From an uncultured Acidobacteriota bacterium (GTDB lineage: Bacteria > Acidobacteriota > G020349885 > CAZDZC01): 64,000 bases of DNA. The stretch covers positions 127,642 through 191,641 of the forward strand of contig CAZDZC010000003.1 of assembly GCA_964509835.1 (NCBI GenBank), given 5' to 3'. A model generated the notes under the pieces. That model ran no database searches. It was not told the origin of the DNA and was given only the letters and a program-made list of their open reading frames with translations. A program made the translations under genes and the position numbers. This document shows positions 964 to 26,855 of this stretch, in pieces. Every line of letters begins with the position of its first letter. The stretch's first letter is position 1.

Positions 964-1036
964 GCCGAGATAGCTCAGTCGGTAGAGCAGTGGACTGAAA
1001 ATCCGCGTGTCGGCGGTTCAAATCCGTCTCTCGGCA
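964..1036 (+). tRNA. tRNA-Phe (anticodon GAA), no encoded CCA
   Basis: The 7-bp acceptor stem GCCGAGA/TCTCGGC pairs cleanly. The D-arm is GCTC-AGTCGGTA-GAGC. The anticodon loop CTGAAAA gives anticodon GAA. The T-arm is GGCGG-TTCAAAT-CCGTC. Length is 73 nt. Confidence 0.93.
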
Positions 1037-7500: not shown

Positions 7501-7973
7501 TAAGCGAAAAAATTGCGAAGAATGGTTCAAGAATGGCTTTCATTACACTTGAAGATTTAAGGGGTTCGATAGAAGTGATAGCCTTTTCTGATGTTTATGA
7601 ATCTTGCAAAACAATAATCGCTGTTGATACCCCTGTTCTTGTCCGGGGGCAGGTGGATGTGGTGGAAAATGGTGTTGAGGCAAAGATCAGGGCTGAAGAG
7701 ATAAGGCTTCTTGACAATATCCGCGGGGAGGAAGCAAAATCAATACTCATTGTAACTTCCGCGGTTGGTCTTGATGGTGATGCCATGCACAAACTCAATA
7801 ATATTCTTGAGAAAAGCAAAGGTTCCAAGACTGTTAATATAAGACTTAACTATCCTAAGAAATATTCAGTTAAAATCGCTCTCAACCCCTACATAAAAGT
7901 GAATCCCAATCCTAAACTGATTGATAGAATTAAGGATGTTTTCGGTAAGAACTCCGTAAAATACGAGTTGTAG
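4494..7973 (+). CDS. dnaE: DNA polymerase III alpha subunit DnaE, interrupted by a single in-frame TAA at 7050-7052 (track ORFs 4494..7052 and 7083..7973 are in the same frame)
   Basis: The N-terminal PHP domain (FVHLHNHSDFSLLDG) and the polymerase core are present. The sequence continues in the same frame after the TAA (..GEKAIDSII*ARDKKGKIESLFDFCSKVDLR..). Comparing with DnaE from memory, that position should carry a Glu codon (GAA). The combined length of ~1148 aa is typical for DnaE. Confidence 0.9.
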
Positions 7974-9255: not shown

Positions 9256-9298
9256 GGTTTAAAATTTGGAATCACTGGTTTTTCCGGTTCACGGTTTG

Positions 9299-10030
9299 AT
9301 GAAAAAAAACATTGAAATTGCTTTGGTTGTTGGTGGCAGTAGGGGCATCGGTCGTTCAATCGCGCTGACATTGGCCGAGGATGGTTTTGATATTCTTCTT
9401 ACTTATAACAGCAGTCATTCCGAGGCAGATAAAGTAAAAGAAAGGATTGAATCCATGGGCCGAAGCTGCCAGTTATTCTGCTTTGATGTTTCAAATCTTT
9501 CACAAACAAAAAACGCTCTGGAAAAGACAGTTAATGAAAAAGCGCCATATGCAGTGATCTTTAATTCGGGAATAGCCAAAGATAATCTGATGGTATGGAT
9601 GTCTCAGAAAGAATGGGAAGATGTTATTTCTGTCAATCTTAATGGATTCTATAATGTTATGAACACAGTTCTTTTCTCCATGCTTCAGAAAAAGAAAGGA
9701 AGAATCATTGCTGTATCTTCCGTATCGGGTGAAACGGGTAATGCCGGACAGGTAAATTATTCAGCTTCAAAAGCAGGTCTTATCGGTGCTGTAAAATCAT
9801 TGGCCAGAGAAGTAGGGAAAAGGAATATTCTTGTTAATGCTGTAGCGCCTGGTATTATAGATACTGAAATGATACATGATCTTCCCAAAGATAAAATTCT
9901 TGCTAACATCCCTCTTAACAGGTTCGGAACTGAGCAGGAAGTTGCATCAGTTGTCAGCTTTCTTTGCAGTGATGGCGCCAGCTACATTCATGGTCAGGTT
10001 ATCGGTATTAATGGTGGATTGTGTATATAA
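9299..10030 (+). CDS. 3-oxoacyl-ACP reductase (FabG-like SDR ketoreductase)
   Basis: The glycine-rich NAD(P)-binding motif VVGGSRGIGRSIA is present, along with the SDR catalytic region (S...YSASKAG) and NAVAPGIIDTEM. Length and motifs are typical of FabG. Confidence 0.85.
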   Translation: MKKNIEIALVVGGSRGIGRSIALTLAEDGFDILLTYNSSHSEADKVKERIESMGRSCQLFCFDVSNLSQTKNALEKTVNEKAPYAVIFNSGIAKDNLMVWMSQKEWEDVISVNLNGFYNVMNTVLFSMLQKKKGRIIAVSSVSGETGNAGQVNYSASKAGLIGAVKSLAREVGKRNILVNAVAPGIIDTEMIHDLPKDKILANIPLNRFGTEQEVASVVSFLCSDGASYIHGQVIGINGGLCI

Positions 10031-10042: not shown

Positions 10043-11548
10043 ATGATCTACGATAACATTGTTATAGGATCGGGAATCAGCGGATTGACAATGGCAATGA
10101 TTCTGGCTATGAACGGAGAGAGTGTTTTAATTCTTGAGAAATCTGATAAAATCGGGGGACTTCTCGGGGGGTTTTACCGTAATGGTATATATTTTGATAC
10201 GGGTTTTCACTTTGCGGGAGGCTTAGCAGAGAACGAATTTTTCAGGCAGGCTTTAGATGTTCTGGGGCTCTCTGATTGTCTTGACATAAGGCTTTTCGGG
10301 TGTGAAGACACTATAGAATATTTGTTTGCCGATAAGAAAGAGGCAAACTGTTTTAATCATACGGACAGAAAGCTTGATATAGGTCTTAAAGAGCTTTTCC
10401 CAAAAGACAGCAAATCAGTATCTGATTTTTTTAAAAGGATTGAAAATATAGCGCTGAAGAGCAGACTGAACAGCCTGAACGAATTTCTTACAGGTACTGG
10501 TAAACTTTCAATGGAAGAAGATTATATATCTCTTGATAATGTCCTCTCCGGTTTATTCAAGAGTGAAAAGATTAAATCAATTCTTTCGGGCTACAATTTA
10601 TGTTACGGTGTCAAGCCATCGGAGATATCTTTTGCAGATCACTGCAGGATTTGCTACTATCTTTACAAATCACCGGGATATTTTAAATATGGCGGGAGAT
10701 CACTGCTAAAAGCGTTTGAAAATAAATTATCCAAATACCGCGTTGAAATAAAAATATCAGATTGTATTTTGGATGTAGGCACATCCGATAATGGCAGAAA
10801 TGTCAGAAATGTGACTCTTAACTCTGGAGAAATCCTTGAATGCAAGAGGTGTATTTTTACGATCCATCCCTATATGATATTGGAAACACTTAAAAATGCT
10901 AAGCTTTCTGCAGCGTTCAGAAAAAGGGTTTCCAATTTTGAGCCGTCGTTAGGGTTTTTCAGTGTTTACGGAACTCTAAAAAGTGACAGGAAATCTGTTC
11001 ACACATTCAGTCATAAAATAATATACCCGTCGGGTGAGAATATGAATAGTATGATGGGTTTCAGGAGTAAAAACAGGGCCATGGCACTTTTTATTCAACC
11101 AATTGATGAGACAACTGGAGGTGAAACCAGAAAAATCTGCGCACTGGAATCATCCTATGCTGAAGATATTTCAGATTTCATTGATCTGGATAATGGGAAA
11201 AAATCAGACAGATATTATGAGTATAAAGAGCAAAAAACATTGTCAATTAAGGACAGGGTTGACGAATATCTTTCATTAGACCGGAACGATTTCAGGGTGC
11301 TGGATTCAGCTTCCATGCTTACTTATAAACAATATTTGAATTCACCTTATGGTTGTGCTTACGGAATCAAACAGAAGATAGGTCAGTTCAATTTGCTGGG
11401 AAGGTTACCGATTAGAAATGTTTTTGCTGCCGGACAGAGTGCTGCCTTACCGGGCCTTTTGGGAGCAATGATGTCCTCATTCATTGTGGCAAAAAATATT
11501 ATCGGTGAGGATAAATTTATGCGTTTTGTTGAGGGAACAATAAACTAG
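10043..11548 (+). CDS. FAD/NAD(P)-binding oxidoreductase, phytoene-desaturase/amine-oxidase-like
   Basis: The N-terminal dinucleotide-binding fold IVIGSGISGLTMAMILAMNGESVLILEK is present. The ~500-aa size is typical of CrtI-like desaturases. Confidence 0.7.
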   Translation: MIYDNIVIGSGISGLTMAMILAMNGESVLILEKSDKIGGLLGGFYRNGIYFDTGFHFAGGLAENEFFRQALDVLGLSDCLDIRLFGCEDTIEYLFADKKEANCFNHTDRKLDIGLKELFPKDSKSVSDFFKRIENIALKSRLNSLNEFLTGTGKLSMEEDYISLDNVLSGLFKSEKIKSILSGYNLCYGVKPSEISFADHCRICYYLYKSPGYFKYGGRSLLKAFENKLSKYRVEIKISDCILDVGTSDNGRNVRNVTLNSGEILECKRCIFTIHPYMILETLKNAKLSAAFRKRVSNFEPSLGFFSVYGTLKSDRKSVHTFSHKIIYPSGENMNSMMGFRSKNRAMALFIQPIDETTGGETRKICALESSYAEDISDFIDLDNGKKSDRYYEYKEQKTLSIKDRVDEYLSLDRNDFRVLDSASMLTYKQYLNSPYGCAYGIKQKIGQFNLLGRLPIRNVFAAGQSAALPGLLGAMMSSFIVAKNIIGEDKFMRFVEGTIN

Positions 11549-12768
11549 TGAACAGAGTGGTTATTACAGGTTTAGGAGCAGTGTCGCCTGCCGGAAATGG
11601 CGTTGACAGCCTCCTGGGATGTTTGAGGAATTCAAAAAACTGTGTAAAAATCATGGATGAATGGAGCGTTTATGGCGGGTTGCTTGGGAAATTGGGTGCT
11701 CCCGCAGAATTGATCAATGAAAAGGAAGTCCCAAGAAACAGCCGAAGGTCAATGAGCCGTATGAGTATTTTTGCTTTGCAGGCTGCTAATGAAGCGATTG
11801 CATGTTCAGGACTGGATCCTGATTTTGTGAGTTCCGGAAATTTCGGTTGCATAATAGGGTCAACGATTGGAAGTTCGGTAACCCTTGAGGAAATATTCAG
11901 AAAGCTTTTACCGGAAAATGATTTGAGCCGTTTAAAATCAACAGATTTCTTTAAATGCCTTTCTCATACAGCCGCAATGAATATTGCGTCATGTTTGAAG
12001 ATCAAGGGGTGGGTAGAATCAACATCTGCGGCCTGCGCATCTGGATTGCAGGCAATAGGATGTGGATTTGATCTGGTGAGAAGCGGCAGGCAGAAGGCAG
12101 TGATCTGCGGTGGAGCGGAAGAGTTGTCTCCGCTTGCTACCGGTTCGTTTGATGTTCTTTATGCGACTTCAACAAGGTATAACACAGAACCGACTAAATC
12201 CCCGCGTCCCTTTGACGCAGAAAGGGACGGACTTGTTTGTGGAGAAGGATGCGGAATTGTCGTTCTTGAGACCCTCGAAATGGCTGAGAAGAGAAACGCA
12301 ACAATTTTCGGAGAAATTCTTGGCTATCATACATGCGGGAACGGGAGTCATATCAGTGATTCAAGCCGTGATGCTATTGTTGCCTGCATAAAAAGCGCTG
12401 TTGCGGACGCAAAGATCTCAATGAAACAGATTGATTATATCAATGCACACGCAACAGGGACAGTTCAAGGGGATCTTGAGGAAGCAATGGGATTAAAGGC
12501 TCTTTTTGGAGAATACGGAACTCCTGTAAGCTCCCTAAAGGGCCATATCGGCCATACGCTTGGGGCTTCCGGCGCATTGGAGTTGATCGCTTCGTTAATA
12601 ATGCTGAAGGAAAATACAATTTTCCCAAATTTGAATCTGGAGCGAACAGATCCTCTCTTTGAGGGAGTAAATCTTTTAAAAGACATAACTCGGGCAGAAA
12701 TAAAAACAGTGCTGAAAAACAGTTTTGCCTTTGGTGGAATAAATGCTTCCATGGTGATTTGCGGATAG
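11548..12768 (+). CDS. Beta-ketoacyl-ACP synthase (FabF/FabB-type KS) with intact Cys-His-His triad; GTG start overlapping upstream stop
   Basis: The active-site Cys sits in STSAACASGLQAIG. The two His residues sit in NAHATGT and GHIGHTLGASG. The protein ends with the KS C-terminal motif AFGGINASMVI. Confidence 0.9.
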   Translation: MNRVVITGLGAVSPAGNGVDSLLGCLRNSKNCVKIMDEWSVYGGLLGKLGAPAELINEKEVPRNSRRSMSRMSIFALQAANEAIACSGLDPDFVSSGNFGCIIGSTIGSSVTLEEIFRKLLPENDLSRLKSTDFFKCLSHTAAMNIASCLKIKGWVESTSAACASGLQAIGCGFDLVRSGRQKAVICGGAEELSPLATGSFDVLYATSTRYNTEPTKSPRPFDAERDGLVCGEGCGIVVLETLEMAEKRNATIFGEILGYHTCGNGSHISDSSRDAIVACIKSAVADAKISMKQIDYINAHATGTVQGDLEEAMGLKALFGEYGTPVSSLKGHIGHTLGASGALELIASLIMLKENTIFPNLNLERTDPLFEGVNLLKDITRAEIKTVLKNSFAFGGINASMVICG

Positions 12769-12792
12769 ACTATTTTGTGTGGAGGAAAAGCA

Positions 12793-13071
12793 ATGAATAA
12801 TGAGAAAATCAGGTCGTATGTTGATGAAATTCTTATAGAGAATTTTGAGTTGAGCAAAGACAAGCTTGATCCTGAAAAAAATCTTTTTGAAGATTTGGGA
12901 TTGGACAGCCTTGATCTTGTAGATTTAGTTGTTGTGCTGCAGGAAAAGTTCAATCTTAACATCAGAAATGATGAACGGATAAGTGCTATCCGCAAAGTGA
13001 AGGATATTTATTCTTATATTGCCGATTTAGCGAAAGAGGGGAAACTCAATTTAGAATCTGATGACCAATAA
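12793..13071 (+). CDS. Acyl carrier protein
   Basis: A ~92-aa protein. DLGLDSLDLVDLV carries the phosphopantetheine-attachment Ser (DSL). The start at 12793 follows a GGAGG RBS. Confidence 0.85.
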   Translation: MNNEKIRSYVDEILIENFELSKDKLDPEKNLFEDLGLDSLDLVDLVVVLQEKFNLNIRNDERISAIRKVKDIYSYIADLAKEGKLNLESDDQ

Positions 13072-13819
13072 GATAAAGCTAGTATTTTTTAATACTTACA
13101 TTTACACTTTATTCCTCATCTACTCAATGGTCACGATTCCTTTAATGTCGTTTGGAGGTGTTTTTGTAATAATACTTAGCACTAAGCGCAAATTTATGAA
13201 ATATTTCCGGCGCTCAATATCTATCTACGGATATATTCTTATCAAGATTGTAATATTTCCTTTCCTGAGAGTTGATTATAAAGATGAATCTCTGAAGAAA
13301 GAAAAAGGCCCGTTTATTTTTGTAGTTAATCATAGGTCGTTAACTGACGCTTTTCTTATGGCTTGTCTGCCGGTTGAGGCAATTCAGGTTGTAAAGGACT
13401 GGGCGACAAAAATACCTGTTTTGGGATTATATGCAAGATCCGCGGGTTATATCAATCTTTCAAAATTGACCTTTGAGCAGTATGAAGAGAAAGTTTCCGG
13501 TTTTTTGAAGCAGGGAGTATCCGTTATATGTTTTCCGGAGGGGACAAGGTCAAGGGGAAAAGAAATGGGACATTTTCACAGTTCAATCTTCAAAATAGCT
13601 CTGAAGGAAAGATGCCGTTTGGTGCCGTTGTGCATAGCGGGAAATGAAGATAAACCTTGCAGAGGATCTTTGGTTTTACATCCCGGTAAGGTTATAATGA
13701 GAAGACTGGAGGCGATAGATCTGGAAAAGGAGAATTTTGACAGTGCTTTCAGGCTCAAAACAGAAACTTGGGGAATTATGGACTGCAAACTCAGAGATCT
13801 TGACGAATTATTAAAATGA
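13061..13819 (+). CDS. 1-acyl-sn-glycerol-3-phosphate/lysophospholipid acyltransferase (PlsC family)
   Basis: The HX4D motif (NHRSLTD) and the FPEGTRS motif are present, with N-terminal transmembrane segments. Confidence 0.8.
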   Translation: MTNKIKLVFFNTYIYTLFLIYSMVTIPLMSFGGVFVIILSTKRKFMKYFRRSISIYGYILIKIVIFPFLRVDYKDESLKKEKGPFIFVVNHRSLTDAFLMACLPVEAIQVVKDWATKIPVLGLYARSAGYINLSKLTFEQYEEKVSGFLKQGVSVICFPEGTRSRGKEMGHFHSSIFKIALKERCRLVPLCIAGNEDKPCRGSLVLHPGKVIMRRLEAIDLEKENFDSAFRLKTETWGIMDCKLRDLDELLK

Positions 13820-15099
13820 TTAAAATTAAAAACCGACCAAGCTTTGCTTCACAAGAGGAAATTATTGAAATCCAGGAAAAGGCTTTAAAAAAACAGATAG
13901 ATTATTGTGTAAAAAATTCAAAGTATTATAAAAAAAGATTCAAAGGTGTTGATGTTTCCGCTGTTAAGCTTTCAAATTTGAGTGATTTGCCTCTGACAAG
14001 CAAATCGGACATGCAGAGGAATAACGAGAGCTTTATTGCAGTTCCGGACGAAAAAGTAACTGATATTGTTTTTACTTCCGGAAGTACCGCAACACCTTTG
14101 AAAGTTGTATTTTCCGAAAATGATTTGAAGCGATTGGCTTTAAATGAAGAAAAATCTTTTCTGACATGCGGGTTATCGTGTTCAGACACAGTTCTTTTAA
14201 CATGTACAATGGACAGATGCTTTATTGCCGGTATGGCTTATTTTCTGGGATTGAGGGCATTGAATGCTTCGGTGCTGAGAACCGGCAACAGCCCCTTGGA
14301 TGCTCAGGCCCGCATTATTGAAATAACAAAACCAACGGCGATTCTTGGTGTTCCCTCATTTCTCAAGAAACTGGCTGAGTATATTCAGGGAAATTATTCT
14401 TCAGAATTGTTTAAAAGCGTAAAACGACTTATCTGCATCGGCGAACCTCTGAGGAACAGACTTATGGAACCTCTGAAAATAACCAAATATCTTGAAAGCA
14501 TCTGGGATGCGAAAGCTTATTCAACATATGCTTCAACAGAAGTTGCTACCACTTTTTGTGAGTGCGGTGATCAGAAAGGGGGTCATCTTCTCCCCGATCT
14601 GGGTATTCTGGAAATTGTAAATGAAAATGGAACCCCACTGCCTGCCGGTGAAATCGGTGAAATTGTAATAACCCCTCTTGGTGTCGAAGCCACTCCTCTT
14701 ATAAGATATCGGACTGGAGATATGGGTTTTATGCTGACAGAACCATGCCGTTGCGGAAGAAACACATTAAGATTGGGACCTATACTGGGAAGAAAGAATC
14801 TGATGTTGAAGGTGAAAGGAACAACGGTTTTCCCCCAGGTAATATTGTCATTTCTGCAGGAAAACAACTATATTTCTGATTATTACATTTCGGTGCACGC
14901 ACTTGATAATCTTTCAGACAGAGTTAAAGTACATGTATCGTTAAAAGACGAAAATGATAAAATTATGAACGAAATTGAAAACGGACTTAAAAGTATTTTG
15001 AGGGTAAAACCGGAATTAATTCTTGAAAATGATGAAACGATGAAAACCGTTATTTACGGATCTTCAAGAAAAGCAAAGAGGATTTTTGATGATAGGTGA
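13816..15099 (+). CDS. Adenylate-forming enzyme of the phenylacetate-CoA ligase (PaaK / coenzyme F390 synthetase) family
   Basis: The ~430-aa size and the short adenylation motif FTSGSTATP match the PaaK-like architecture. Confidence 0.7.
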   Translation: MIKIKNRPSFASQEEIIEIQEKALKKQIDYCVKNSKYYKKRFKGVDVSAVKLSNLSDLPLTSKSDMQRNNESFIAVPDEKVTDIVFTSGSTATPLKVVFSENDLKRLALNEEKSFLTCGLSCSDTVLLTCTMDRCFIAGMAYFLGLRALNASVLRTGNSPLDAQARIIEITKPTAILGVPSFLKKLAEYIQGNYSSELFKSVKRLICIGEPLRNRLMEPLKITKYLESIWDAKAYSTYASTEVATTFCECGDQKGGHLLPDLGILEIVNENGTPLPAGEIGEIVITPLGVEATPLIRYRTGDMGFMLTEPCRCGRNTLRLGPILGRKNLMLKVKGTTVFPQVILSFLQENNYISDYYISVHALDNLSDRVKVHVSLKDENDKIMNEIENGLKSILRVKPELILENDETMKTVIYGSSRKAKRIFDDR

Positions 15100-15102: not shown

Positions 15103-16569
15103 ATGAGCAACTGCACAGGCGATTTAGTTGATATTTCCGAGCAGGACATAAAACAGGCAATTCAGAAAAAAGGTCTTCTGACAATTGAAATTGAGCCCAG
15201 CCTGAAGTGCAATTTTAAATGTCCCTATTGCTATGTTGCGTCTGATAACAATAATGTGAAGGATTTATCGCTGAATGAGCTAAAAGATGTTATTGTTCAG
15301 GGGAAAGACCTTGGTGCCAGGAATATAATAATACTTGGCGGGGAGCCGATGATTTATCCTCATATTGTGGAGCTTATAGGGTTCATTAATTCGCTGGGCC
15401 TTAACTCGCATATATTCACAAATGGAACAAATATCAGCATGGAGACAGCGGACCTGTTGTTTCAACATGGCGTAAAGCCGATGCTCAAGTATAATTCAAA
15501 GGATAAAAATATTCAGAATTTTCTGTGCGGCAGAGAAAATGCTTTTGAGACCATACAAAATGCATTCAATAATTTACTGGAGGCAGGATATTCAAAAGAC
15601 GGACAGATAAAACTAAGTGTCAGCAGTATCATCTGCAGACAGAATCTACATGAATTACCCGATTTGTGGAGGTTTTTTAAAGGTAAGAATATCCTTCCGT
15701 ACTTTGAGATAATTACTCCCGGAAGTAAAAATACTTCCGATTTGGAGGTAAGTTCGAGTGAATTGAAGAAGCTTTTCCAGGAAATTTCGGAGATAGACAG
15801 GCTTGAGTTTGGAAATACCTGGGATCCTTTGCCTCCGATAATGGGTTACAACTGCTCAATACTCAAATATTCCTGCATTGTAAAATCAAAAGGTTTTGTG
15901 ATGCCTTGTGTAGGAGTAAGCATCAAGATTGGAGATATCAGGCAAAAAAAACTGAAGGATATTATTCATGACAGCGAAATCTTACATGAATTAAGGAATC
16001 ATGAAGATTATATAAAAGAACCGTGCAGAAGCTGTGATGCTTCGCCAAAGTGTTACGGGTGCCGCGGAGCAGCATTCAATTTGACTGGGGACTATCTTGC
16101 CGCAGATCCTTTGTGCTGGAGAAATGATGAAAGAAAAGAGGAAATTGCTTATCTGCCTTTCAAAACGGAAGGCCTTATTCCGCATTTGCCTCCGATGTCG
16201 CAGATAAAAAGGATTTTGTATATAGGTGAAAAAATCGGACATGTGGAATCTGAAATTAAGCGTGATAATATTTTTCTGGACAGCAGCGCGAATCTGGACA
16301 GATGTTTATTTGTAGAGATGGTAGCTCAGGCTGCCGGAGCGCTTGAAAGCTTCAAAGATATGAAAAATTCTCCTCGTGCTCTCAAGGGTTTTCTAGCGGA
16401 TGTAAGTAATTTTGAGTTTAGCGGAAGTGCGGGAATTGGAGATGTTTTGAAAATTGAAATAACAAAGATTGTTGATATGGATAAGATTGCATTGCTTAGG
16501 GGCGAGGTATTTAAAAATAAAGAATTAATTGCTTCCGGCAATATTAAACTATTCAGGGAAAATGGTTAA
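15103..16569 (+). CDS. Radical SAM/SPASM-domain enzyme with ~130-aa C-terminal hotdog-like extension
   Basis: CNFKCPYCY is the CX3CX2C radical-SAM cluster. The Cys-rich SPASM region is CRSCDASPKCYGCRGAA...CW. The C-terminal ~130 aa (..VLKIEITKIVDMDKIALLRGEVFKNKELIASGNIKLF) resembles a hotdog/FabZ-like fold. Confidence 0.8.
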   Translation: MSNCTGDLVDISEQDIKQAIQKKGLLTIEIEPSLKCNFKCPYCYVASDNNNVKDLSLNELKDVIVQGKDLGARNIIILGGEPMIYPHIVELIGFINSLGLNSHIFTNGTNISMETADLLFQHGVKPMLKYNSKDKNIQNFLCGRENAFETIQNAFNNLLEAGYSKDGQIKLSVSSIICRQNLHELPDLWRFFKGKNILPYFEIITPGSKNTSDLEVSSSELKKLFQEISEIDRLEFGNTWDPLPPIMGYNCSILKYSCIVKSKGFVMPCVGVSIKIGDIRQKKLKDIIHDSEILHELRNHEDYIKEPCRSCDASPKCYGCRGAAFNLTGDYLAADPLCWRNDERKEEIAYLPFKTEGLIPHLPPMSQIKRILYIGEKIGHVESEIKRDNIFLDSSANLDRCLFVEMVAQAAGALESFKDMKNSPRALKGFLADVSNFEFSGSAGIGDVLKIEITKIVDMDKIALLRGEVFKNKELIASGNIKLFRENG

Positions 16570-17245
16570 CAAACAGATGTCTGCGGTCACTCCAAAATTT
16601 CAAATAATACTTCTGCTGATTTTTATATTAGTTATCCCGGAAGCCAGCTATTGCAATGCACTGTCAGATAACGATGCGAATGCTATCTTGAAGAGGCTGG
16701 AAGGGAAAATGAGCCTGATCAAATCGTTAAGAGCTGAATTTGTTCAGGAAAAGAGCCTTAAAATGTTTGATCATATCATCCGGATTGAGGGGGTTCTGTA
16801 TATGCAGAAACCCGAAAGCTTCTCGTGGCACACTGAAAGCCCTTTGCGCTATTCTCTTATAATCAAAGATGGTTTCGCAAAGCAATGGGACTCTTCCGCC
16901 GGAAAGATTGAAAAAATATCACTGAAGGACAAGCCTGAATACAATTTCGTGGCTGCCCGAATTAAAGAATGGCTTGGAGCTGATTTTACCAAGCTTAAAG
17001 ATGATTATAAGGTGATGGTGTTTGAGCAAAACCCTCTTGTTGTTAATCTTAACTGCATGCCGGAGAGTCCGGTCTCAGATATGATTTCAACTGTCAAGCT
17101 TACATTCAGGAAAGACGAAAGCTATATTGATAAAATAGAGATATTTGACCCGGAAGGCAATCTGACAACAGTGAATTTTATTTCCGTTACAATAAATGGA
17201 GATATAGACAGGAGGGCCTGGGAGGCTGGCCAGGGTGTTCGTTAA
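16562..17245 (+). CDS. LolA-like outer-membrane lipoprotein carrier family protein (signal peptide)
   Basis: A signal peptide (FQIILLLIFILVIPEASY) is present. The ~220-aa size and its position before the MMPL gene match aryl-polyene-type clusters. The assignment rests on context and pattern, not on a strong motif. Confidence 0.55.
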   Translation: MVNKQMSAVTPKFQIILLLIFILVIPEASYCNALSDNDANAILKRLEGKMSLIKSLRAEFVQEKSLKMFDHIIRIEGVLYMQKPESFSWHTESPLRYSLIIKDGFAKQWDSSAGKIEKISLKDKPEYNFVAARIKEWLGADFTKLKDDYKVMVFEQNPLVVNLNCMPESPVSDMISTVKLTFRKDESYIDKIEIFDPEGNLTTVNFISVTINGDIDRRAWEAGQGVR

Positions 17246-19616
17246 ACCTTATCAATATTTCGCTGAATTAATTTCAAGGAACAGAAAACGGTTTCTTTAT
17301 TTGCTTACAGCTTTTTTTTTGCTTTCAATCGCCACTTTTCCGTTTTGTAAATTCAGTAATGACTTAAGAACAATCCTGCCTCAGAAAGCTAGTATTTCCA
17401 AGCAGATTGAATTTCTCGGAAACGCAGCATTTTCAAACAATATTATTATAAATCTCAGGCTGGAATCTGATAATTTTGATAAAAATGAGCTTTTCAGGGC
17501 TTCGGAATTAATAACCTCATCGCTGGACAGTCCTTTGATTACTGATGTCAAATCGGGAATCAGCGGAAAAAACATTAAGAATGATTATCTTAATTTAAGA
17601 TATCATTTACCGGCTTTTTTTGACGAAGAAGCTTTGGTTTATGCTGAGAAAGCCACCAGCTCTGAGGGTGTTCATGAAAGGCTGAAATCAATATATGATT
17701 CCGTTTTGAAATCAGCTGGAGCATTCAGCTCTTCGTTTATTGAAGCCGACCCGTTTGGACTTACCACCGGTATTCTGCAAAAAGTAAGACATGCTGCAGG
17801 CGCGACTTCTTATAACGCTAAGCTTGATGACGGCTATTTTCTCAGCAAGGACAGCAGGGAAGTAATGATAATACTCAGAACGACAGTAAAAACCACTGAT
17901 TTTGCTGAATCTAAAATACTTCTGGATTACCTTTATGAGAAACTTAAAATTCTTCCTCAACACATTCACGGAACTGTTATTTGTGCCCACAACCATACGG
18001 TCAGTAATTCCGAAGCGATAAGAAAAGATATAAATATCAATATGATTGGGATAAATATTGTCTTTTTGTTAATGATAATATTTGTTTTCAGGGATACAAG
18101 AAGCGTAATGATTTTTCTGCTTCCTTTTCTATCCTTTCCGCTCGCTATCAATGTGACATCATTAATTCATTCTGAGGTTTCGTTTTTTGTGTTGGGTCTG
18201 GGAGCTCTTATTGCAGGTATTGGTGTTGATTTCGGAATACATGCTTATGTTGCGGTCAGGTTTAACGACAATGGGAAGCACCGCTTAAGCGGGATTGTAA
18301 AACCATTGACGATAAGTGTTTTAACAACGATCTCAGCATTATTTGCCTTTTATTTTTCTTCAATTAAGGGATACCGGCAACTAGCAACATTTTCAATAAC
18401 AAGTCTCGGATTATGTTTTTTTCTTGCGTTGTTTTTTCTTCCTCAGCTATTAAGAAAGCGTTCCGGCAACCCTGATTATTTTCATAAGTTTAATCCGGAT
18501 GGTTTTTCCCGGGGGTTTAATTCATGTATATCTTTGCTCTGGCTTGTATTTATTGTCTTTTTCTTTATATTTTTTGATAAGGTTGATTATAAGGGCGACA
18601 TCAGGTTCATGGACGGGACAGAATCTCATATAATAAACGAGGAAAACAGATTTCGGGATGTCTGGATGAATGGGTTCGCAAAAGCCATGCTGGTTGTTGA
18701 AAATGAAAATTTTGAGACTGCGGTGAGGCTGAATGAAAAGTTCTATCAGAAACTTACAGCCAACATCAATACATCTGAAATATCAAGTCTTGCATCAGTC
18801 ATACCTTCCGGTGAAATTCAGAAAAACAATATTGAACGCTGGAAACGATTCTGGTCTGAAACGAGAATTGCTGAATTAAAGCGGGTGCTTTCAGTAGAAA
18901 TGCCTGTATATGGGTTTAAGGAGGGGGCTTTTTCTGATTTTTTTGGATTTATTGAGGATAAAAACATATTTAATGATAGCTCCCTGCCAGAGGTTTCAAT
19001 TTTGGAAGAATTGAAGCGTTTGTTTGTTCTGGAGAATAATGGCAAATACAATATAGTTACATTTTGTAACGATACTTCAGAAAACAGAAAACAGCTTTCT
19101 GATATAGCAGACGGAAATCCATCAGTATTTTTGGTTTCCCAGAATGAGCTTTCCAAGGGAATTCAGGAGACACTCTCTTCAGAACTGTTGCGCCTTTCGA
19201 TAATCGTTGCCACAATTATTTTTTTTGTGGTTGCTCTTCTGTTGATAAAGCCTTTTCAGGTAATGTTTTCCCTTCTTCCCGTTCTGACAGCTGTCTGCGC
19301 GACCCTCGCTGTGACAGTTTCAGATGGAATGACTCCTCCCGCGATCATGGCGCTTGTTCTTGTTATCGGGCTGTCAATTGATTATGGCGTTTTTATGGCC
19401 TTCCGGTTGAACCATGAGCGTGATAATGGAACATGTGTTGGGGTGTTTTTATCAACTTTAACTACATTTTCAGCCGCCTGTATTCTTCTTTTTTCTAATC
19501 ATCCTGTTTTATTTCAGTTCGGCATGGCACTGGCACCAGGGATTCTGGCGGGTTTTCTAACCGCTTACTTCGTTGTTCCTGCTTTGTACAATCTTTTTCA
19601 AAGAACAGGTCAATAA
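17235..19616 (+). CDS. MMPL/RND-superfamily exporter
   Basis: A 793-aa protein with two blocks of ~6 TM helices, each preceded by a large periplasmic loop. This is MMPL topology. Confidence 0.8.
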   Translation: MFVKPYQYFAELISRNRKRFLYLLTAFFLLSIATFPFCKFSNDLRTILPQKASISKQIEFLGNAAFSNNIIINLRLESDNFDKNELFRASELITSSLDSPLITDVKSGISGKNIKNDYLNLRYHLPAFFDEEALVYAEKATSSEGVHERLKSIYDSVLKSAGAFSSSFIEADPFGLTTGILQKVRHAAGATSYNAKLDDGYFLSKDSREVMIILRTTVKTTDFAESKILLDYLYEKLKILPQHIHGTVICAHNHTVSNSEAIRKDININMIGINIVFLLMIIFVFRDTRSVMIFLLPFLSFPLAINVTSLIHSEVSFFVLGLGALIAGIGVDFGIHAYVAVRFNDNGKHRLSGIVKPLTISVLTTISALFAFYFSSIKGYRQLATFSITSLGLCFFLALFFLPQLLRKRSGNPDYFHKFNPDGFSRGFNSCISLLWLVFIVFFFIFFDKVDYKGDIRFMDGTESHIINEENRFRDVWMNGFAKAMLVVENENFETAVRLNEKFYQKLTANINTSEISSLASVIPSGEIQKNNIERWKRFWSETRIAELKRVLSVEMPVYGFKEGAFSDFFGFIEDKNIFNDSSLPEVSILEELKRLFVLENNGKYNIVTFCNDTSENRKQLSDIADGNPSVFLVSQNELSKGIQETLSSELLRLSIIVATIIFFVVALLLIKPFQVMFSLLPVLTAVCATLAVTVSDGMTPPAIMALVLVIGLSIDYGVFMAFRLNHERDNGTCVGVFLSTLTTFSAACILLFSNHPVLFQFGMALAPGILAGFLTAYFVVPALYNLFQRTGQ

Positions 19617-19617
19617 T

Positions 19618-20289
19618 TTGAAAATTTATAAGCATATTGTTTTTTTCATGTTTGCTGTAATGGCCGCAACATCATGTGTTTCAATACCAAATAAAAAGCA
19701 AACTGATAATATGGCCCCAGTGAGGGATTCCGTGAAAATCAGGACGGAATTTCTAAATCTTCTTCCTGATATTTTTGAAACTGACAATACAATAGAATTC
19801 AGGTTCAAAGGGCGTTCCTTATCTGCCATAGGTCTTACAAAAGTTAATGTTCCTGACAAGTCTTATCAAGCGGTCACATTTAATCCTGCCGGTCTGGAGC
19901 TTTTCGAGATCACTTATGATAAAGAAATAATCTGCGGTTATATACATGAGAAATTGAATAAAAAAGGGGATTTGTGCACATGGGTTGCGGAGGACATAAA
20001 AAACATATATTTTGAACGCGTTCCTCCTGCGGATTCATCTGTAATACAAACAAAACGGGAATTGATATTCTCGACGGACAGCGGTGCTAAATCAATGATT
20101 TATGTTTTCAAGGGATCTCCTTGTTATCTTTTTGAAAAAAGACTGAAGGTGCAAGATCGGGTTGTGTGGAGCATCAGGTATGATGATTACTTCAAACAAA
20201 ATGAAAAAATCTATCCCAAGATGATATCACTTAAAAACTACATGTACGGTTATAAACTTGTAATAAAACTGAACGGTGTCAAGGAATGA
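19618..20289 (+). CDS. Hypothetical lipoprotein (possible DUF3261-like); probable TTG start at 19618 giving MKIYKHIVFFMFAVMAATSC lipobox signal
   Basis: An in-frame TTG sits right after the MMPL stop, followed by a lipoprotein signal peptide with the lipobox ATSC. The track ORF begins earlier, inside MMPL. Confidence 0.5.
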   Translation: MKIYKHIVFFMFAVMAATSCVSIPNKKQTDNMAPVRDSVKIRTEFLNLLPDIFETDNTIEFRFKGRSLSAIGLTKVNVPDKSYQAVTFNPAGLELFEITYDKEIICGYIHEKLNKKGDLCTWVAEDIKNIYFERVPPADSSVIQTKRELIFSTDSGAKSMIYVFKGSPCYLFEKRLKVQDRVVWSIRYDDYFKQNEKIYPKMISLKNYMYGYKLVIKLNGVKE

Positions 20290-20681
20290 AAATATTAAAA
20301 AAGGAAATAGATGAATTAGTTGTTGTAAATCCTGAAGATGCTTCTTCAACAAATATTGAAGTCACGCTGGCTTTCCCTGCTGATTTCATCGGATTCAGCG
20401 GGCATTTTCCGGATAACCCGGTTTTGCCTGGAATATGCTCTGTTCTTACCGTGGTTTCGATAGTCGAGAGATTAATATGTTCAACATTAATCCTGGAAAA
20501 AATTATCAAAGCAAAATTTTTATCGGTTATTAAACCGAACGATAATATAAAATTCACCATTGACTGCATTGATGGCTTTAAAAATATCGGTTGCATAGAA
20601 GTTCATGCCGACTTTTACAAAAGCGAACAGAAGGCAGGACATATCGAGATGGTTTTGAGATCGAATGCGGAGAAAATGTAA
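20286..20681 (+). CDS. 3-hydroxyacyl-ACP dehydratase, FabA/FabZ-like hotdog fold
   Basis: FSGHFPDNPVLPGI matches the FabZ active-site motif (HFP..P..PG). The protein is 131 aa. Confidence 0.8.
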   Translation: MKILKKEIDELVVVNPEDASSTNIEVTLAFPADFIGFSGHFPDNPVLPGICSVLTVVSIVERLICSTLILEKIIKAKFLSVIKPNDNIKFTIDCIDGFKNIGCIEVHADFYKSEQKAGHIEMVLRSNAEKM

Positions 20682-21153
20682 CATGACATCAAGAAAACAG
20701 TCTTTTTTTGAGCGTAAAAGCAGCGATCCTTCTCCGATTTCTGTCAGTGTTGAACAGGAAGTGTATTTCAGTCAGGCAGATCCTATGGGGGTTGTGTGGC
20801 ACGGAGAGTACCCCCGTTTTTTTGAAGTGGGATATTCTGCGCTGACAAAGTATTGCGGGCTGACTTTTATGGAGCTGCACAAGGCCGGGATTATGGCTCC
20901 TATTGTGAAGCATCACATTGATTATTACCAGCCGGTATTTGTGGGGGAAGTTATAAATATTGTGACATCTCTTATATGGTCTGAAGCAGCGAAAATGAAT
21001 ATTGAATATCGAATTTTCAACAGCAAAAAGGAATTGACTACATTCGGCTACAGCCAGCAGTTATTTGTTGACGCGAAGAGCAGGGAGTTGTGTTTTATAG
21101 GGCCGGGTATTCTGGAAGATTTGAGGGTCAGATGGAGAAAAAATCAAATATAA
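20665..21153 (+). CDS. Acyl-CoA/ACP thioesterase, 4HBT (YbgC-like) hotdog family
   Basis: VYFSQADPMGVVWHGEYPRFFEVG is a typical 4HBT N-terminal region. The ~160-aa size fits. Confidence 0.7.
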   Translation: MRRKCNMTSRKQSFFERKSSDPSPISVSVEQEVYFSQADPMGVVWHGEYPRFFEVGYSALTKYCGLTFMELHKAGIMAPIVKHHIDYYQPVFVGEVINIVTSLIWSEAAKMNIEYRIFNSKKELTTFGYSQQLFVDAKSRELCFIGPGILEDLRVRWRKNQI

Positions 21154-22271
21154 CTGAAAGAGCTGTTATTGTTGACAGAGGACTTTTAACCTGTTTCGGA
21201 AACGGTGTGGATATCTGCTGGGAAAAATTGAAACGGAATGAGTCAGGCATAAGGGAATTCTCCCGTTTCCCTGTGGATCATTTCATTTCACAAAGTGCTG
21301 CCTCAATAGATGGTCTTGATGTCAGTAAATCTCTTTCATATCAGATGCTGGAAATATTATTGAAAGACAGGCTCAGTAATTTGCCCGAAGATAACTGCTT
21401 GATTTTTTCTACCACAACCGGAGAAGTAGATTTGCTGGAAAAACATATCGCTTCTGAAGGAACAGCTACAGACGGTTTGGCACCTGGAGATTTCTTAATG
21501 AAGGTTCTCGAATTAACCGGCAGCAGCAAAGGATACCTTGTTTCCGCTGCCTGCGCATCATCTTCTTTGGCAATAATTAAGGGTGCGTTGATGATAGAGA
21601 AAGGGATACAGGATTGTATCCTGATAATAGGATGCGATTGTGTCAGCGAATTTGTTTTTTCAGGTTTTTCTTCCCTTCAGGCGCTTGCCAGGTATAGGGC
21701 AAAACCTTTCGATAGAGACAGGGATGGTCTTAGTCTGGGCGAAGCTGCCGGTTATGTTCTTTTGATGGGCGAGGGAAGGGCAGCGAGAGAAAATCGGGAG
21801 ATTTTGGGAAGGGTATGCGGTTGGGGTATGACTAATGATGCCAATCATATGACAGGTCCGGACAAAAACGGAGAAGGATTAAGCCGGTCAATCAGTAAAT
21901 CCCTGAGCTCAGCATTCATAACCCCTGAGCAGGTTGGTTCAATATCTGCTCATGGGACGGGCACTCGCTTTAATGATTCGATGGAGTTAAAAGCGTTTAA
22001 AACAATTTTCGGGAAACACCATGTTCCGGTTTACTCAGTTAAGGGAGGCATTGGGCATACTATGGGCGCTGCAGGTTTGGTGGAAGTTATTTTATGCTTA
22101 TGCTCATTGAAAGAAAAATTAGTCCCGCCGGTTGTCAACCTTGAAAACATTGATGAAGAGGCTGAAGGATGGGTCAGCAAAGAAAGTGTCTTTGTGGAAA
22201 AACCATATGCGCTATCAACAAATTCAGGGTTCGGTGGAGTCAATTCCGCAATTGTAATTAAATTGATTTGA
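21132..22271 (+). CDS. Beta-ketoacyl-ACP synthase (KS) with Cys-His-His triad
   Basis: The catalytic Cys is in VSAACASSSLAI. The His residues are in SAHGTGT and GHTMGAAG. A GAGGG RBS precedes the Met at 21132. Confidence 0.88.
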   Translation: MEKKSNITERAVIVDRGLLTCFGNGVDICWEKLKRNESGIREFSRFPVDHFISQSAASIDGLDVSKSLSYQMLEILLKDRLSNLPEDNCLIFSTTTGEVDLLEKHIASEGTATDGLAPGDFLMKVLELTGSSKGYLVSAACASSSLAIIKGALMIEKGIQDCILIIGCDCVSEFVFSGFSSLQALARYRAKPFDRDRDGLSLGEAAGYVLLMGEGRAARENREILGRVCGWGMTNDANHMTGPDKNGEGLSRSISKSLSSAFITPEQVGSISAHGTGTRFNDSMELKAFKTIFGKHHVPVYSVKGGIGHTMGAAGLVEVILCLCSLKEKLVPPVVNLENIDEEAEGWVSKESVFVEKPYALSTNSGFGGVNSAIVIKLI

Positions 22272-22288
22272 TTTTGATGTGAGTTGCC

Positions 22289-22933
22289 ATGACAAATATT
22301 AATGGAATAGGCTGGATATTAAAAAACGAATGTGGATGCATTAAGAAAAACCGCAACTTGATATTTGACAATATTGCGGAAGTACATGGCATTCTTTCCG
22401 ATAATTCTATCATCACTGCAAAATTTCAGGGTTATAAACGGTTTGATGATGAATCCAAAAAAACATTCTGCGCAACCGCTTTAGCAATTTATGATTCAGG
22501 GATTTCAGATTTTTCCGGATATGGAATAATCGGAACGAATCCGAACGGTTCCCTGGATTCCAATCTGCTCTACTTCAGAGATTATTTTAAAGCATCAAAA
22601 ACAATAGGCCGAGGGAATCTTTTTATTTACACTCTTCCTTCCAGTCCGCTGGCTGAAAGCTCTATCGCGTTTGGCTTAAAGGGACCTCTTTACTATTTGT
22701 GGTCCCCGGGGAATATTTATGAAGCTGTTTTAGAAGATGCAATAGCGCTGATCGAATCTGAAGAAACCGAGGGTTTGATTTTATCGCTGAGTTCGAATCA
22801 TTGTGTTTTAAGCCTGTCAATCATCAGGGGTGAGACTGAGAAATCAGGACACGTTCTGGAGAAGATCAGGAATTTTATAAAGAACAGTGACAATCTGGAA
22901 GAAATATTAAGCAATATAAGGGGTTTGGTTTGA
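22289..22933 (+). CDS. Small KS-like/thiolase-fold fragment protein lacking catalytic Cys (hypothetical; possible KS partner)
   Basis: Contains a GLKGP segment reminiscent of the KS pre-active-site motif, but has no Cys or His catalytic residues. The protein is 214 aa. The assignment is weak. Confidence 0.35.
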   Translation: MTNINGIGWILKNECGCIKKNRNLIFDNIAEVHGILSDNSIITAKFQGYKRFDDESKKTFCATALAIYDSGISDFSGYGIIGTNPNGSLDSNLLYFRDYFKASKTIGRGNLFIYTLPSSPLAESSIAFGLKGPLYYLWSPGNIYEAVLEDAIALIESEETEGLILSLSSNHCVLSLSIIRGETEKSGHVLEKIRNFIKNSDNLEEILSNIRGLV

Positions 22934-24372
22934 GCAGCAGTGGCAGGAAACCCAGGATACTGCTGATTCATCCCCTCGGTTATAACCCTGAGGGAAGGAA
23001 AACTGATATTTCAAGACTCGCGAATATAATGCCTCCGCTCGGATTGATAAGTATTGCGGCATGGATGGAAAAGCACGGTATCGAGACTGAAATAGCAGAT
23101 TGTCATGCGTATCCTCAGAGCGATGAAGACATTCGGAAAGCAGTGTCAGGATTTATGCCTGACTTTGCGGGGTTCAGCTGTACTACTTCATCCTTTCTGG
23201 ATGGAATCAGAATTGCGAATATTGTAAAAACAACAAAGTCTGACACAAAAGTTATATTCGGAGGTCCCCATGTCTCAGCTCTAAAAATGGGAATTCTGGA
23301 ATTTTTTCCGGTTGTTGATTTTGTGGTTGCCGGAGAGGGTGAAGATGCTGTAAAGGATTTAATCGAAAAATTTCCGCACATAAATGGAGTAAAAGGCCTG
23401 ATTTTCAGGGATGAAGATAAAATAATATTTAACGGAGATCAGACTGGGTTAATGGACCTTGACTCTCTTCCTTTTCCCGCTTACGAAAAATTGAAAGGTT
23501 TTCCGGAACATTATAAACTTCCGATATTCAATTATCCCAAAACCCCAAATGCAAGCATTGTGACTAGCCGCGGCTGTGTTTATGAGTGCAGTTACTGCGA
23601 CCGCTCGGTTTTCAGAAAAAGCTTCCGGTTTAATTCCGCTGAATACATTTTTGAGCATATTAAATTCTTGAAAAGAAACTACGGGATAAAGCATATCAAC
23701 TTTTATGACGATAATTTTACTTTGAATAGAAACAGGATTGATTCGCTATGCAGATTGTTAATTGATTCAGGAATCCATATTACTTTCAATTGCGCTGTCA
23801 GGCCTGAGCTTATTGATAAAGATCTCTTGAAAAACATGAAATCAGCCGGCTGCTGGATGGTAAGCATGGGAATAGAGAGCGGATCGGAGGATCTTCTTTC
23901 GAATCATCGTCAGAATGTAAAGCTTGACTCTTATGTTCAAAAAATAAAAATGACCAGGAAAGCAGGGATGCGGGTTAAGGGTTTATTTATGATTGGATTG
24001 CCCGGAGAAACGGAAAAGAGTATAAACGACACAATAAAGTTCATCAAAAAAAATCCTTTGGATGAAATCAACATTTCAAAGTTCACTCCTTTCCCCGGAT
24101 CACCCATTTACAAAAATATTTCAGAGCATGGTGATTTTGAGGAAGATTGGACTAAAATGGACTGTATGCACTTCCAATTTGTTCCTATGGGATTCACAAA
24201 GGAACGGCTTCAGGAGCTTTTTACAGAAAGCTATAAATCTTATTTCAAAAAGCCTCGCACTCTTTTCAATTATATCTCGATGATTTACCGCTCTCCGGAC
24301 AGCTGGCTGAGATTTATAGGAAATGCGGGGGACTATATTCGTTTTGCAAAAACAGACAAAAGAATTTCATGA
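22930..24372 (+). CDS. Cobalamin-binding (class B) radical SAM enzyme
   Basis: An N-terminal B12-binding Rossmann region (..KVIFGGPHVSA..) is followed by CVYECSYC (CX3CX2C) at residue ~215. The protein is ~480 aa. Confidence 0.85.
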   Translation: MSSSGRKPRILLIHPLGYNPEGRKTDISRLANIMPPLGLISIAAWMEKHGIETEIADCHAYPQSDEDIRKAVSGFMPDFAGFSCTTSSFLDGIRIANIVKTTKSDTKVIFGGPHVSALKMGILEFFPVVDFVVAGEGEDAVKDLIEKFPHINGVKGLIFRDEDKIIFNGDQTGLMDLDSLPFPAYEKLKGFPEHYKLPIFNYPKTPNASIVTSRGCVYECSYCDRSVFRKSFRFNSAEYIFEHIKFLKRNYGIKHINFYDDNFTLNRNRIDSLCRLLIDSGIHITFNCAVRPELIDKDLLKNMKSAGCWMVSMGIESGSEDLLSNHRQNVKLDSYVQKIKMTRKAGMRVKGLFMIGLPGETEKSINDTIKFIKKNPLDEINISKFTPFPGSPIYKNISEHGDFEEDWTKMDCMHFQFVPMGFTKERLQELFTESYKSYFKKPRTLFNYISMIYRSPDSWLRFIGNAGDYIRFAKTDKRIS

Positions 24373-26845: not shown

Positions 26846-26855
26846 CACATCTCCT

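Follow-up and report, generated by a model that had tools for sequence, protein, structure and literature searches.

What does a hotdog-like domain do at the end of a radical S-adenosylmethionine (SAM) enzyme that is encoded among lipid genes? The question is raised by the gene at 15103..16569 (+) of a 64,000-nucleotide stretch of DNA, hereafter the window, from an uncultured Acidobacteriota bacterium (GenBank assembly GCA_964509835.1, contig CAZDZC010000003.1, positions 127,642 to 191,641). An initial annotation, made from the sequence alone, had read the gene product as a radical SAM/SPASM enzyme with a hotdog-like tail and had suggested an acyl-acyl carrier protein (acyl-ACP) as its substrate. 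The reading that we favor, with a probability of roughly 0.6, is that the tail makes up one half, the one that contributes the Glu, of a heterodimeric 3-hydroxyacyl-ACP dehydratase and brings an ACP-tethered chain to the radical SAM domain for radical modification.

Domain architecture of the fusion protein

The gene and the parts of its product are as follows.

15103..16569 (+): radical SAM–SPASM–ApeP-type hotdog fusion gene, 488 aa, ATG start
15193..15654 (+): radical SAM core, residues 31-184 (PF04055)
15853..16116 (+): SPASM domain, residues 251-338 (PF13186 and eight invariant Cys)
16117..16155 (+): linker, region of residues 339-351, a helix (339-347) and then a conserved LP motif (AlphaFold2 model, conservation)
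16156..16560 (+): ApeP/FabZ-type hotdog domain, residues 352-486 (Foldseek, phmmer, family statistics)

The open reading frame (ORF) starts four bases past the stop of the upstream ligase gene, and in the window its stop end overlaps the LolA-like ORF by 41 nt. The Pfam scan places the radical SAM core well above its gathering score (PF04055, E 7.9e-19, 68.9 bits vs a cut-off of 29.5). Both the cluster motif C36-X3-C40-X2-C43 (15208..15231) and the SAM-binding motif G79-G80-E81-P82 (GGEP) are invariant in a 60-member family alignment, and the AlphaFold2 model matches radical SAM structures with a Foldseek probability of 1.00. The protein is predicted to cleave SAM to the 5'-deoxyadenosyl radical. 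Three residues that are at least 90% conserved in the family, Cys4, Glu10 and Phe11, lie in a low-confidence N-terminal segment (residues 1-11, 15103..15135); they might act as an additional ligand or contact the ACP or a partner.

The SPASM domain is also found above its Pfam threshold (PF13186, residues 251-312, E 2.1e-8, 34.7 bits vs 21.5). Eight cysteines in this region are invariant in the same alignment (C251, C258, C269, C308, C311, C317, C320 and C338), in agreement with the CX3CX2C motif and Cys-rich SPASM region first noted in the 488-aa ORF. Seven of them follow the SPASM consensus CX9-15GX4C...CX2CX5CX3C...C as C251-X12-G264-X4-C269, C308-X2-C311-X5-C317-X2-C320 and C338, with one spacing of X2 rather than X3 and with C258 as an extra cysteine. 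The C-terminal motif aligns with that of PqqE (6c8v), and the eight residues are predicted to be enough for full ligation of two auxiliary [4Fe-4S] clusters. Whole-protein Foldseek searches of the PDB matched the N-terminal 340 residues to SkfB, SuiB, PqqE and anSME. The nearest curated models in the NCBIfam scan are NirJ2 (121 bits), AhbD (115) and PqqE (104), although no NCBIfam model reaches its cut-off on this protein; the first two scores fall far short of the cut-off of 500, and since heme-pathway neighbors are lacking too, the protein does not belong to the AhbD/NirJ families.

The end of the SPASM domain lies where it had been proposed, near residue 340 with about 140 residues to follow: the last cysteine is C338, alignments to the NCBIfam SPASM-family models stop at residues 339-343, and about 145 residues remain. 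The junction is ordered in the whole-protein AlphaFold2 model, which was built on the 60-sequence alignment and has a mean predicted local distance difference test score (pLDDT) of 88.5 and a predicted template modeling score (pTM) of 0.87; pLDDT is about 91 over residues 341-370, and N341, I348, L351 and P352 are conserved across the 60 sequences. Because the linker is ordered and the pTM is 0.87, the model suggests a fixed inter-domain arrangement.

Modeled alone, the tail reached a pLDDT of 89.2. Past residue 370 its topology runs from two short strands through a long helix to four long antiparallel strands, with strands at 370-384, 428-439, 448-458, 462-471 and 474-486 and the central helix at 401-418. 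The stretches GDVLKIEITKI and ALLRGEVFKNKELIASGNIKLF, from which a hotdog fold had been suspected, correspond to predicted strands of the hotdog sheet (448-458, 462-471 and 474-486). The top fold match in the PDB is 6qsr_B, the ApeP chain of the ApeI:P heterocomplex (E 5e-11; template modeling (TM) scores 0.84/0.82), which superposes on the tail with a root-mean-square deviation of 2.1 Å over 144 columns at about 21% identity. The other 49 of the 50 fold matches listed are FabZ structures, the anammox amxFabZ among them, and TM scores to the ApeP and FabZ structures range from 0.79 to 0.84. The whole-protein search recovers the same hotdog matches as the isolated tail. The predicted structure is accordingly neither a disordered linker nor a non-hotdog fold, and the suspected hotdog is borne out.

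Sequence comparisons give a weak signal that points consistently the same way. In a phmmer search of PDB sequences, the tail matched 6qsr_B (E 1.2e-4) and Campylobacter jejuni FabZ (E 0.034), the NCBIfam FabZ model TIGR01750 gave E 3.2e-6 (27 bits vs a cut-off of 155), and a precomputed Pfam table assigns PF22817 (ApeP-like) to the fusion protein and to all 119 listed homologs. No 4HBT or TesB thioesterase appeared among the Pfam and NCBIfam matches of the tail or among its 50 listed fold matches. The tail had been described as a dehydratase or a thioesterase; since its matches in fold and sequence are to ApeP, FabZ and FabA only, the dehydratase type is supported and the 4HBT thioesterase type is not.

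A proposed split dehydratase site

The tail seems to be more than an acyl-binding module: it resembles one of the two catalytic halves of a split dehydratase, whose other half would be encoded downstream in the same operon.

20286..20681 (+): ApeI-like hotdog protein, 131 aa, predicted partner (Pfam ApeI-like and FabA; PDB 3esi_A and 6qsr_A, ApeI)

In FabZ and FabA, the His and the Glu of an active site are contributed by opposite subunits. The FabZ active site lies at the dimer interface, where the conserved His abstracts the C2 proton and the Glu or Asp positions the substrate (PMC10139942). In the tail, E405 (16315..16317) and Q409, on the central helix (EMVAQAAG), are invariant in the 60-member alignment, whose mean column identity is 63%. 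Aligned to C. jejuni FabZ, E405 coincides with the catalytic Glu and a Ser stands at the His position, and the catalytic-His motif HFPxxPxxPG is absent from the tail. The ApeI-like protein shows the complementary pattern: its GHFPDNPVLPG aligns with the FabZ His motif, and a Leu occupies the position of the FabZ Glu.

The same division of residues recurs across the family. Relatives of the fusion are present in at least 437 species-representative genomes (one genome per species scanned), and the locus counts and host lineages given here refer to the best 80 loci of these. An E..(A/S)Q helix is present in 77 of the 80 tails, 71 of which have no His within the 22 residues upstream. Conversely, all 58 ApeI-like partners carry the GHF..PG His motif, and in 53 of them Glu or Asp is missing at the FabZ-Glu position, where 42 have Gln. 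The ApeI-like gene was found in 53 of the 54 loci with a flank reaching far enough downstream, and a further ApeP-like or FabZ-like gene was found neither in the window cluster nor in 79 of the 80 related loci. The two halves also occur in one chain: double hotdogs of about 300 aa join an ApeP-like N-terminal half, with the Glu helix and no His, to an ApeI-like C-terminal half with the GHFP motif. One of them (locus L084) lies upstream of a thioesterase, ketosynthase (KS) and B12-binding radical SAM series like the downstream context in the window. Such covalent fusions are Rosetta-stone evidence for joint working of ApeP and ApeI, and their occurrence in sister clusters argues that the two halves work together here as well. 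From these motifs we infer that the tail and its partner heterodimerize, which would make them a clear added case of an obligate heterodimeric hotdog dehydratase. The roles given to the catalytic residues of ApeI and ApeP themselves are likewise read from alignments.

The attachment of this half-site to a radical SAM enzyme is widespread. A search of 5.8 billion protein clusters returned 843 homologs of the fusion protein at E<=1e-5. The 120 that were listed (119 non-self) are 476-519 aa long, cover 94-100% of the query at 42-47% identity and share the Radical_SAM, SPASM, PF22817 architecture throughout; databases label them only as 'radical SAM protein'. Within this family the window protein is divergent, with a best non-self identity of 47% among the matches listed. 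For GuaA, the homolog nearest to that of the host is 73% identical, and the next matches, at about 60%, are to Acidobacteriota and Thermoanaerobaculia. The radical SAM and hotdog parts form a single ORF in 80 of 80 loci, and the fusion is conserved far beyond chance. Hosts include Nitrospirota/Thermodesulfovibrionia, Omnitrophota, Geobacteraceae and other Desulfobacterota, Brocadiaceae and other Planctomycetota, Lentisphaerota, Kiritimatiellia, Verrucomicrobiota and Deferribacteres, lineages that are mostly anaerobic. The fusion is rare among characterized enzymes, but in nature it is common; the tail, in turn, is a standard part of this family and not of SPASM enzymes generally.

The ApeP module itself occurs free, fused to ApeI or fused to a radical SAM enzyme. 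An exhaustive phmmer search of 1.84 billion representatives, with the tail as query, returned 578 matches at E<=1e-3, of which 140 were at E<=1e-10, and included standalone ApeP-like proteins of 128-171 aa whose identity to the tail (33-38%) is the same as that of other fused tails. Three of these (P0125, P0127 and P0128) are on contigs of 0.8-1.7 kb, too short to show context. The initial annotation asked whether the two parts exist elsewhere as separate genes. The hotdog does; a separate 402-aa radical SAM gene at L084 was considered as a split version and rejected, since it is not an orthologue of the N-terminal part of the window protein and is similar at the cluster motif only (E 2e-4). 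Two longer proteins, P0210 (720 aa; radical SAM-SPASM-hotdog-LolA) and P0137 (717 aa; acyltransferase-...-SPASM-hotdog), are either real extended fusions or merged gene calls.

The operon and its surroundings

The other features of the window that concern the fusion gene are given below.

9266..10030 (+): SDR ketoreductase (KR) (Pfam)
10043..11548 (+): CrtD/phytoene-desaturase-like FAD enzyme (Pfam)
11548..12768 (+): KS, upstream (Pfam)
12775..13071 (+): acyl carrier protein, 98 aa, DSL motif (ORF, sequence)
13061..13819 (+): PlsC-type acyltransferase (Pfam)
13816..15099 (+): FlxY/PaaK-like AMP-ligase (Pfam, NCBIfam FlxY)
16529..24372 (+): downstream operon half (Pfam, NCBIfam, collinearity)
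20665..21153 (+): 4HBT thioesterase (Pfam)
22289..22933 (+): 214-aa protein between the second KS and the B12-binding radical SAM gene (no Pfam match)
22930..24372 (+): B12-binding radical SAM enzyme (Pfam, NCBIfam)
24380..37985 (-): convergent second lipid operon (Pfam)

Past the fusion gene, the order is LolA-like, RND/MMPL-like (793 aa), DUF3261, ApeI-like, 4HBT thioesterase, KS, 214-aa protein and B12-binding radical SAM. In BLASTP comparisons with the window proteins, the operon is collinear, gene for gene, in the 80 loci wherever the contig is long enough, and this arrangement of about 16 genes spans at least six phyla. The ACP at 12775..13071, which has a homolog in 62 of the 80 loci, is likely the carrier of the substrate chain. 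The AMP-ligase scores near, but under, the cut-off of the flexirubin ligase model FlxY (441.6 vs 520 bits). The 214-aa protein may be a degenerate KS or a chain-length-factor remnant; its equivalent at L084:6635-7348 has a weak N-terminal match to ketoacyl-synt.

All of an aryl polyene (APE)/flexirubin-type gene set is found in this one operon: a ligase, a KS pair, a KR, ApeI/P dehydratases, an ACP, a thioesterase, an acyltransferase and a LolA/RND/DUF3261 export set. The ACP, KS, KR, thioesterase and aryl-acid-type AMP-ligase genes show that chains are assembled on an ACP, and since the operon has no enoyl reductase, an unsaturated chain is implied. The acyl-ACP substrate that had been suggested for the fusion fits this setting of an ACP, two KS, a KR, a thioesterase and an ApeI-like partner, and the radical SAM domain would then act on such a chain. 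The extra radical SAM, B12-binding radical SAM and CrtD-like genes suggest a modified product.

Directly downstream, on the same strand, most related loci carry two B12-binding radical SAM genes; in the window there is one, and after it comes the convergent second operon, which encodes a KS-like pair, an ACP, an LpxL-type acyltransferase, a GT2+DUF2062 protein, three B12-binding radical SAM enzymes, a FabH-like protein, an ABC-2 transporter pair and a BtrH_N/DUF4872 protein. In all, the cluster extends over about 30 kb, with four B12-binding radical SAM enzymes besides the SPASM fusion. An Rfam scan of the window found no riboswitch, including cobalamin riboswitches, with the cluster or near the B12-dependent genes; its sole match is a tRNA gene at 964..1036 (+), between recA and a DUF1611 gene.

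Two of the loci deserve separate mention. The operon of a Nitrospirota metagenome-assembled genome (MAG; L053, CAVVUN010000001.1) is the only rearranged one: it has an extra standalone ApeP-like ORF, its RND gene is upstream of the ligase gene, and no ORF has the ApeI-like gene as best match. Pontiellaceae bacterium B12227 (L060, JAROAZ010000004.1) holds nearly the entire collinear operon and may be cultured, which would suit it to genetics and lipidomics. Elsewhere in the window, dnaE (DNA polymerase III alpha, 4494..7973) contains one in-frame TAA at 7050..7052 (GEKAIDSII*ARDKKGK) that splits Pfam HHH_6 across two ORFs; either the sequencing or the assembly may be at fault here, or an essential gene may have undergone a GAA-to-TAA change. 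The 2505-aa ORF at 39014..46531 (+) combines a gingipain-type Peptidase_C25 and propeptide with fn3, purple-acid-phosphatase-N, MAM/reelin-like and PKD repeats, and its product is probably a secreted or surface protease.

Proposed role, rival explanations and known systems

In the reading that we favor, the fusion protein would be a three-domain enzyme of an aryl-polyene-type lipid pathway of anaerobes, similar to type II polyketide synthase/fatty acid synthase systems. Its tail would be the cluster's ApeP equivalent and pair with the ApeI-like protein (20286..20681) as a heterodimeric 3-hydroxyacyl-ACP dehydratase, in which the ApeI-like subunit would supply the His, and the fused tail Glu405, of a single composite active site. 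This dehydratase would serve the KS/KR/ACP elongation cycle. Because the tail is covalently, and by the model probably rigidly, joined to the SPASM domain, a growing ACP-tethered chain that visits the dehydratase tunnel could be presented directly to the radical SAM site. There, an oxygen-independent modification of the chain might take place, e.g., H-abstraction followed by C-C bond formation, desaturation or oxidation, with the two auxiliary clusters possibly serving as an electron conduit; a two-electron oxidation or desaturation via these clusters would be one option for the radical step. The hotdog half-site might thus be to acyl-ACP what the RiPP recognition element (RRE) is to peptides in the SPASM maturases of peptides that are made on ribosomes and modified after translation (RiPPs). 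To our knowledge, there is hardly any precedent for a radical SAM enzyme that is built directly into an assembly line of the type II fatty-acid/polyketide kind.

Several points weigh against this reading. On the sequence side, the tail falls under the Pfam gathering thresholds for both ApeP-like (15.3 vs 27 bits) and FabA (15.4 vs 23 bits), each at about E 0.015, and the profile searches of hotdog families proposed at the outset returned FabZ, FabA and ApeP-like matches, all of them sub-threshold; the family assignment of the tail thus leans mainly on structure prediction. The tail by itself cannot be a dehydratase because it has no catalytic His. Complementarity is not universal either: in five of the 58 partners the acid position is a Glu, and by alignment an Asp appears to stand there in the Xenorhabdus ApeI. 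The support for the proposed heterodimer is indirect: co-occurrence, complementary motifs and double hotdogs. In addition, a standalone ApeP-like gene directly follows the acyltransferase gene in a cluster variant (L081), so the dehydratase function does not require the fusion. Finally, the kind of radical reaction and the attachment of its substrate to an ACP are presumed, and NirJ2, AhbD and PqqE appear too distant and too chemically diverse for their reactions to be transferred to the fusion protein.

These points give room to other explanations. The one that we take most seriously, although we consider it unlikely, holds that the tail is a catalytically inert, RRE-like recruitment module that binds the acyl chain or ACP, with dehydration performed by the ApeI-like protein alone or by a housekeeping FabZ. 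The missing His, the generic acyl binding of hotdog folds and the five partners that hold both His and Glu, and could work as homodimers, are in its favor; but pure binding does not need an E405 and Q409 that are invariant at a mean column identity of 63%, and the acid is missing from 53 of the 58 partners, the cluster has no other ApeP-like or FabZ-like gene, and sister clusters contain the covalent ApeP-ApeI double hotdogs. Somewhat less likely than this is a fusion that serves co-expression or stoichiometry only, the radical SAM substrate being elsewhere, such as an aromatic starter acid, a released lipid or a head group. It would be consistent with the nearest curated families, NirJ2 and AhbD, which act on free small molecules, with the standalone ApeP-like proteins of cluster variants, and with the fusions to LolA or an acyltransferase (P0210 and P0137), which are possibly gene-calling artefacts. 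However, retention of the fusion in 80 of 80 loci across very deep divergence (about 42-47% identity), together with an ordered, conserved linker and a high pTM, argues for functional coupling over neutral fusion.

Two further possibilities carry far less weight. A peptide- or protein-modifying SPASM maturase of the RiPP or anSME type, with an incidental tail, would account for the best N-terminal fold matches (SkfB, SuiB, PqqE and anSME), but the Pfam and NCBIfam scans found no RRE/PqqD-like domain in the fusion protein, and all NCBIfam RiPP-maturase models score far under their cut-offs. No precursor-peptide or protease/exporter context typical of RiPPs is present either; the neighbors of the fusion gene are all lipid/polyketide genes, and they are conserved across phyla. 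With no RRE and an exclusively lipid/polyketide context, we rejected the RiPP-maturase reading as highly improbable. Least probable of all is that the tail works as a hotdog thioesterase and sets the product free once the radical step is done. The fold is common to thioesterases, yet the 50 fold matches listed are all ApeP or FabZ and none is 4HBT or TesB, the sequence matches are to FabZ, FabA and ApeP only, and the cluster already has a 4HBT thioesterase at 20665..21153; this reading was therefore rejected for want of thioesterase similarity in either sequence or fold.

The closest known counterpart of the tail and its neighbor is the ApeI:ApeP pair of Xenorhabdus doucetiae (PDB 6qsr; PF22817/PF22818), in which ApeP is the best match of the tail in fold and sequence and ApeI is matched by the neighbor. 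ApeP is a free-standing protein of about 150-180 aa, whereas its equivalent here is the C-terminal domain of a radical SAM/SPASM enzyme, and the ApeI-like partner in the window is without the acid residue that the Xenorhabdus ApeI appears to have. The wider cluster resembles APE clusters as well, in its ApeH-like ligase, ApeD-like acyltransferase, ApeL (LolA), ApeM (RND), ApeN (DUF3261), ApeK (thioesterase), KS pair, KR and ACP. We know of no radical SAM enzyme in canonical APE clusters; unlike them, the window cluster adds a CrtD-like FAD enzyme and four B12-binding radical SAM genes. Roles for the aryl-polyene genes ApeH, D, L, M, N, I, K, O and Q have been described (PMC8253772). With FabZ and FabA, including amxFabZ (3d6x, 6n3p, 8ayb and 7qv0), the tail shares the hotdog fold (TM about 0.8) and the helix of the catalytic Glu; however, FabZ is a homodimer (usually within a hexamer) with both residues on each chain, whereas here the His and the Glu are on two polypeptides.

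Among radical SAM enzymes, PqqE, SuiB, SkfB, anSME and AhbD/NirJ share with the fusion protein the radical SAM core and a full SPASM domain with two auxiliary clusters. These families have no C-terminal hotdog, and the fusion protein has neither an RRE nor a peptide context. The initial remark that SPASM enzymes usually act on peptides or proteins is too narrow if taken as a restriction: the substrates of AhbD and NirJ are tetrapyrroles, and a 2026 review of lipid-modifying radical SAM enzymes describes the archaeal tetraether synthases Tes and Gms as SPASM radical SAM enzymes that act on lipid chains and not on peptides (PMC13459092). Tes and Gms, though, take finished membrane lipids as substrates and lack any carrier-protein or hotdog module, and no specific sequence relationship to the fusion was seen. 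A search of that review for 'SPASM', 'hotdog' and 'dehydratase' found no mention of such a fusion, nor does its ladderane section mention one, and the searched papers that describe the radical SAM genes of ladderane-type clusters do not mention a hotdog domain. In the open-access literature, we found no description of a hotdog-fused SPASM enzyme or of an ApeI/ApeP split site joined to a radical SAM enzyme; a prior description elsewhere is possible.

The cluster type, by contrast, has a longer history. In 2009, a combination of radical SAM, phenylacetyl-CoA-ligase-like and phytoene-desaturase-like genes with several KS, an ACP and an unknown membrane protein was described (Rattray, PMC2649909) from Kuenenia stuttgartiensis (kuste3335-3352), Desulfotalea psychrophila (DP1853-1860) and Geobacter, and was considered a possible cluster for ladderanes or polyunsaturated lipids. 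Judged by the published description, the window operon is the same gene combination, and MAGs of Brocadiaceae and Geobacteraceae hold the fusion within the collinear operon. The radical SAM genes of this cluster type resisted expression in Escherichia coli (PMC4790861), and clusters labeled 'ladderane' by antiSMASH are found, and expressed, in many non-anammox phyla with function unknown (PMC9902471). The anammox 'Cluster I' that is now favored for ladderanes (amxACP, amxFabZ, the amxFabF2/FabFmut pair, PDH and B12-binding radical SAM) appears to be a separate and smaller cluster. PDH-like, KS and B12-binding radical SAM genes occur in the window too, but in an APE-like organization; amxFabZ is a fold-level match only, and by its GuaA matches the host is not evidently an anammox bacterium. 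Most hosts of the fusion operon are not known ladderane producers.

The arrangement nevertheless resembles an unproven 'stepwise' proposal for ladderanes, set out in PMC10139942 and PMC13459092, according to which a radical SAM enzyme would modify an enoyl intermediate on the ACP between rounds of elongation. A 'stepwise, ACP-bound' mechanism for the ladderane rings has been proposed (Dietl 2023, type c; Fig. 11C of PMC13459092) and never demonstrated, and ring formation is nowhere indicated by our data. It is conceivable, although we think it doubtful, that the radical SAM domain acts repeatedly during chain growth, with H-abstraction and C-C bond formation on each enoyl- or polyenoyl-ACP before the next elongation. 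If so, the polyene lipids that anaerobes make with this operon would be carbocyclic or cross-linked and form a new class, and Geobacteraceae or the apparent Pontiellaceae isolate might provide a more tractable model of ladderane-type radical cyclization.

Overall, a dehydratase half is physically part of a SPASM enzyme and is conserved as such in hundreds of anaerobic species of several phyla. It gives testable access to an orphan cluster, one that goes by the label 'ladderane' in genome mining of many non-anammox bacteria, and, with the hotdog half-site in an RRE-like role, could be a natural example of targeting a radical enzyme to a carrier-protein-bound lipid. Through Geobacteraceae and Pontiellaceae, it may become tractable to ask if acyl-ACP chains are modified by radical SAM enzymes while they grow, as has been proposed for ladderane biosynthesis. 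Compared with known systems, then, the cluster type has been flagged since 2009, and what is new is an aryl-polyene-type dehydratase, predicted to be a heterodimer, with one half inside a radical SAM enzyme.

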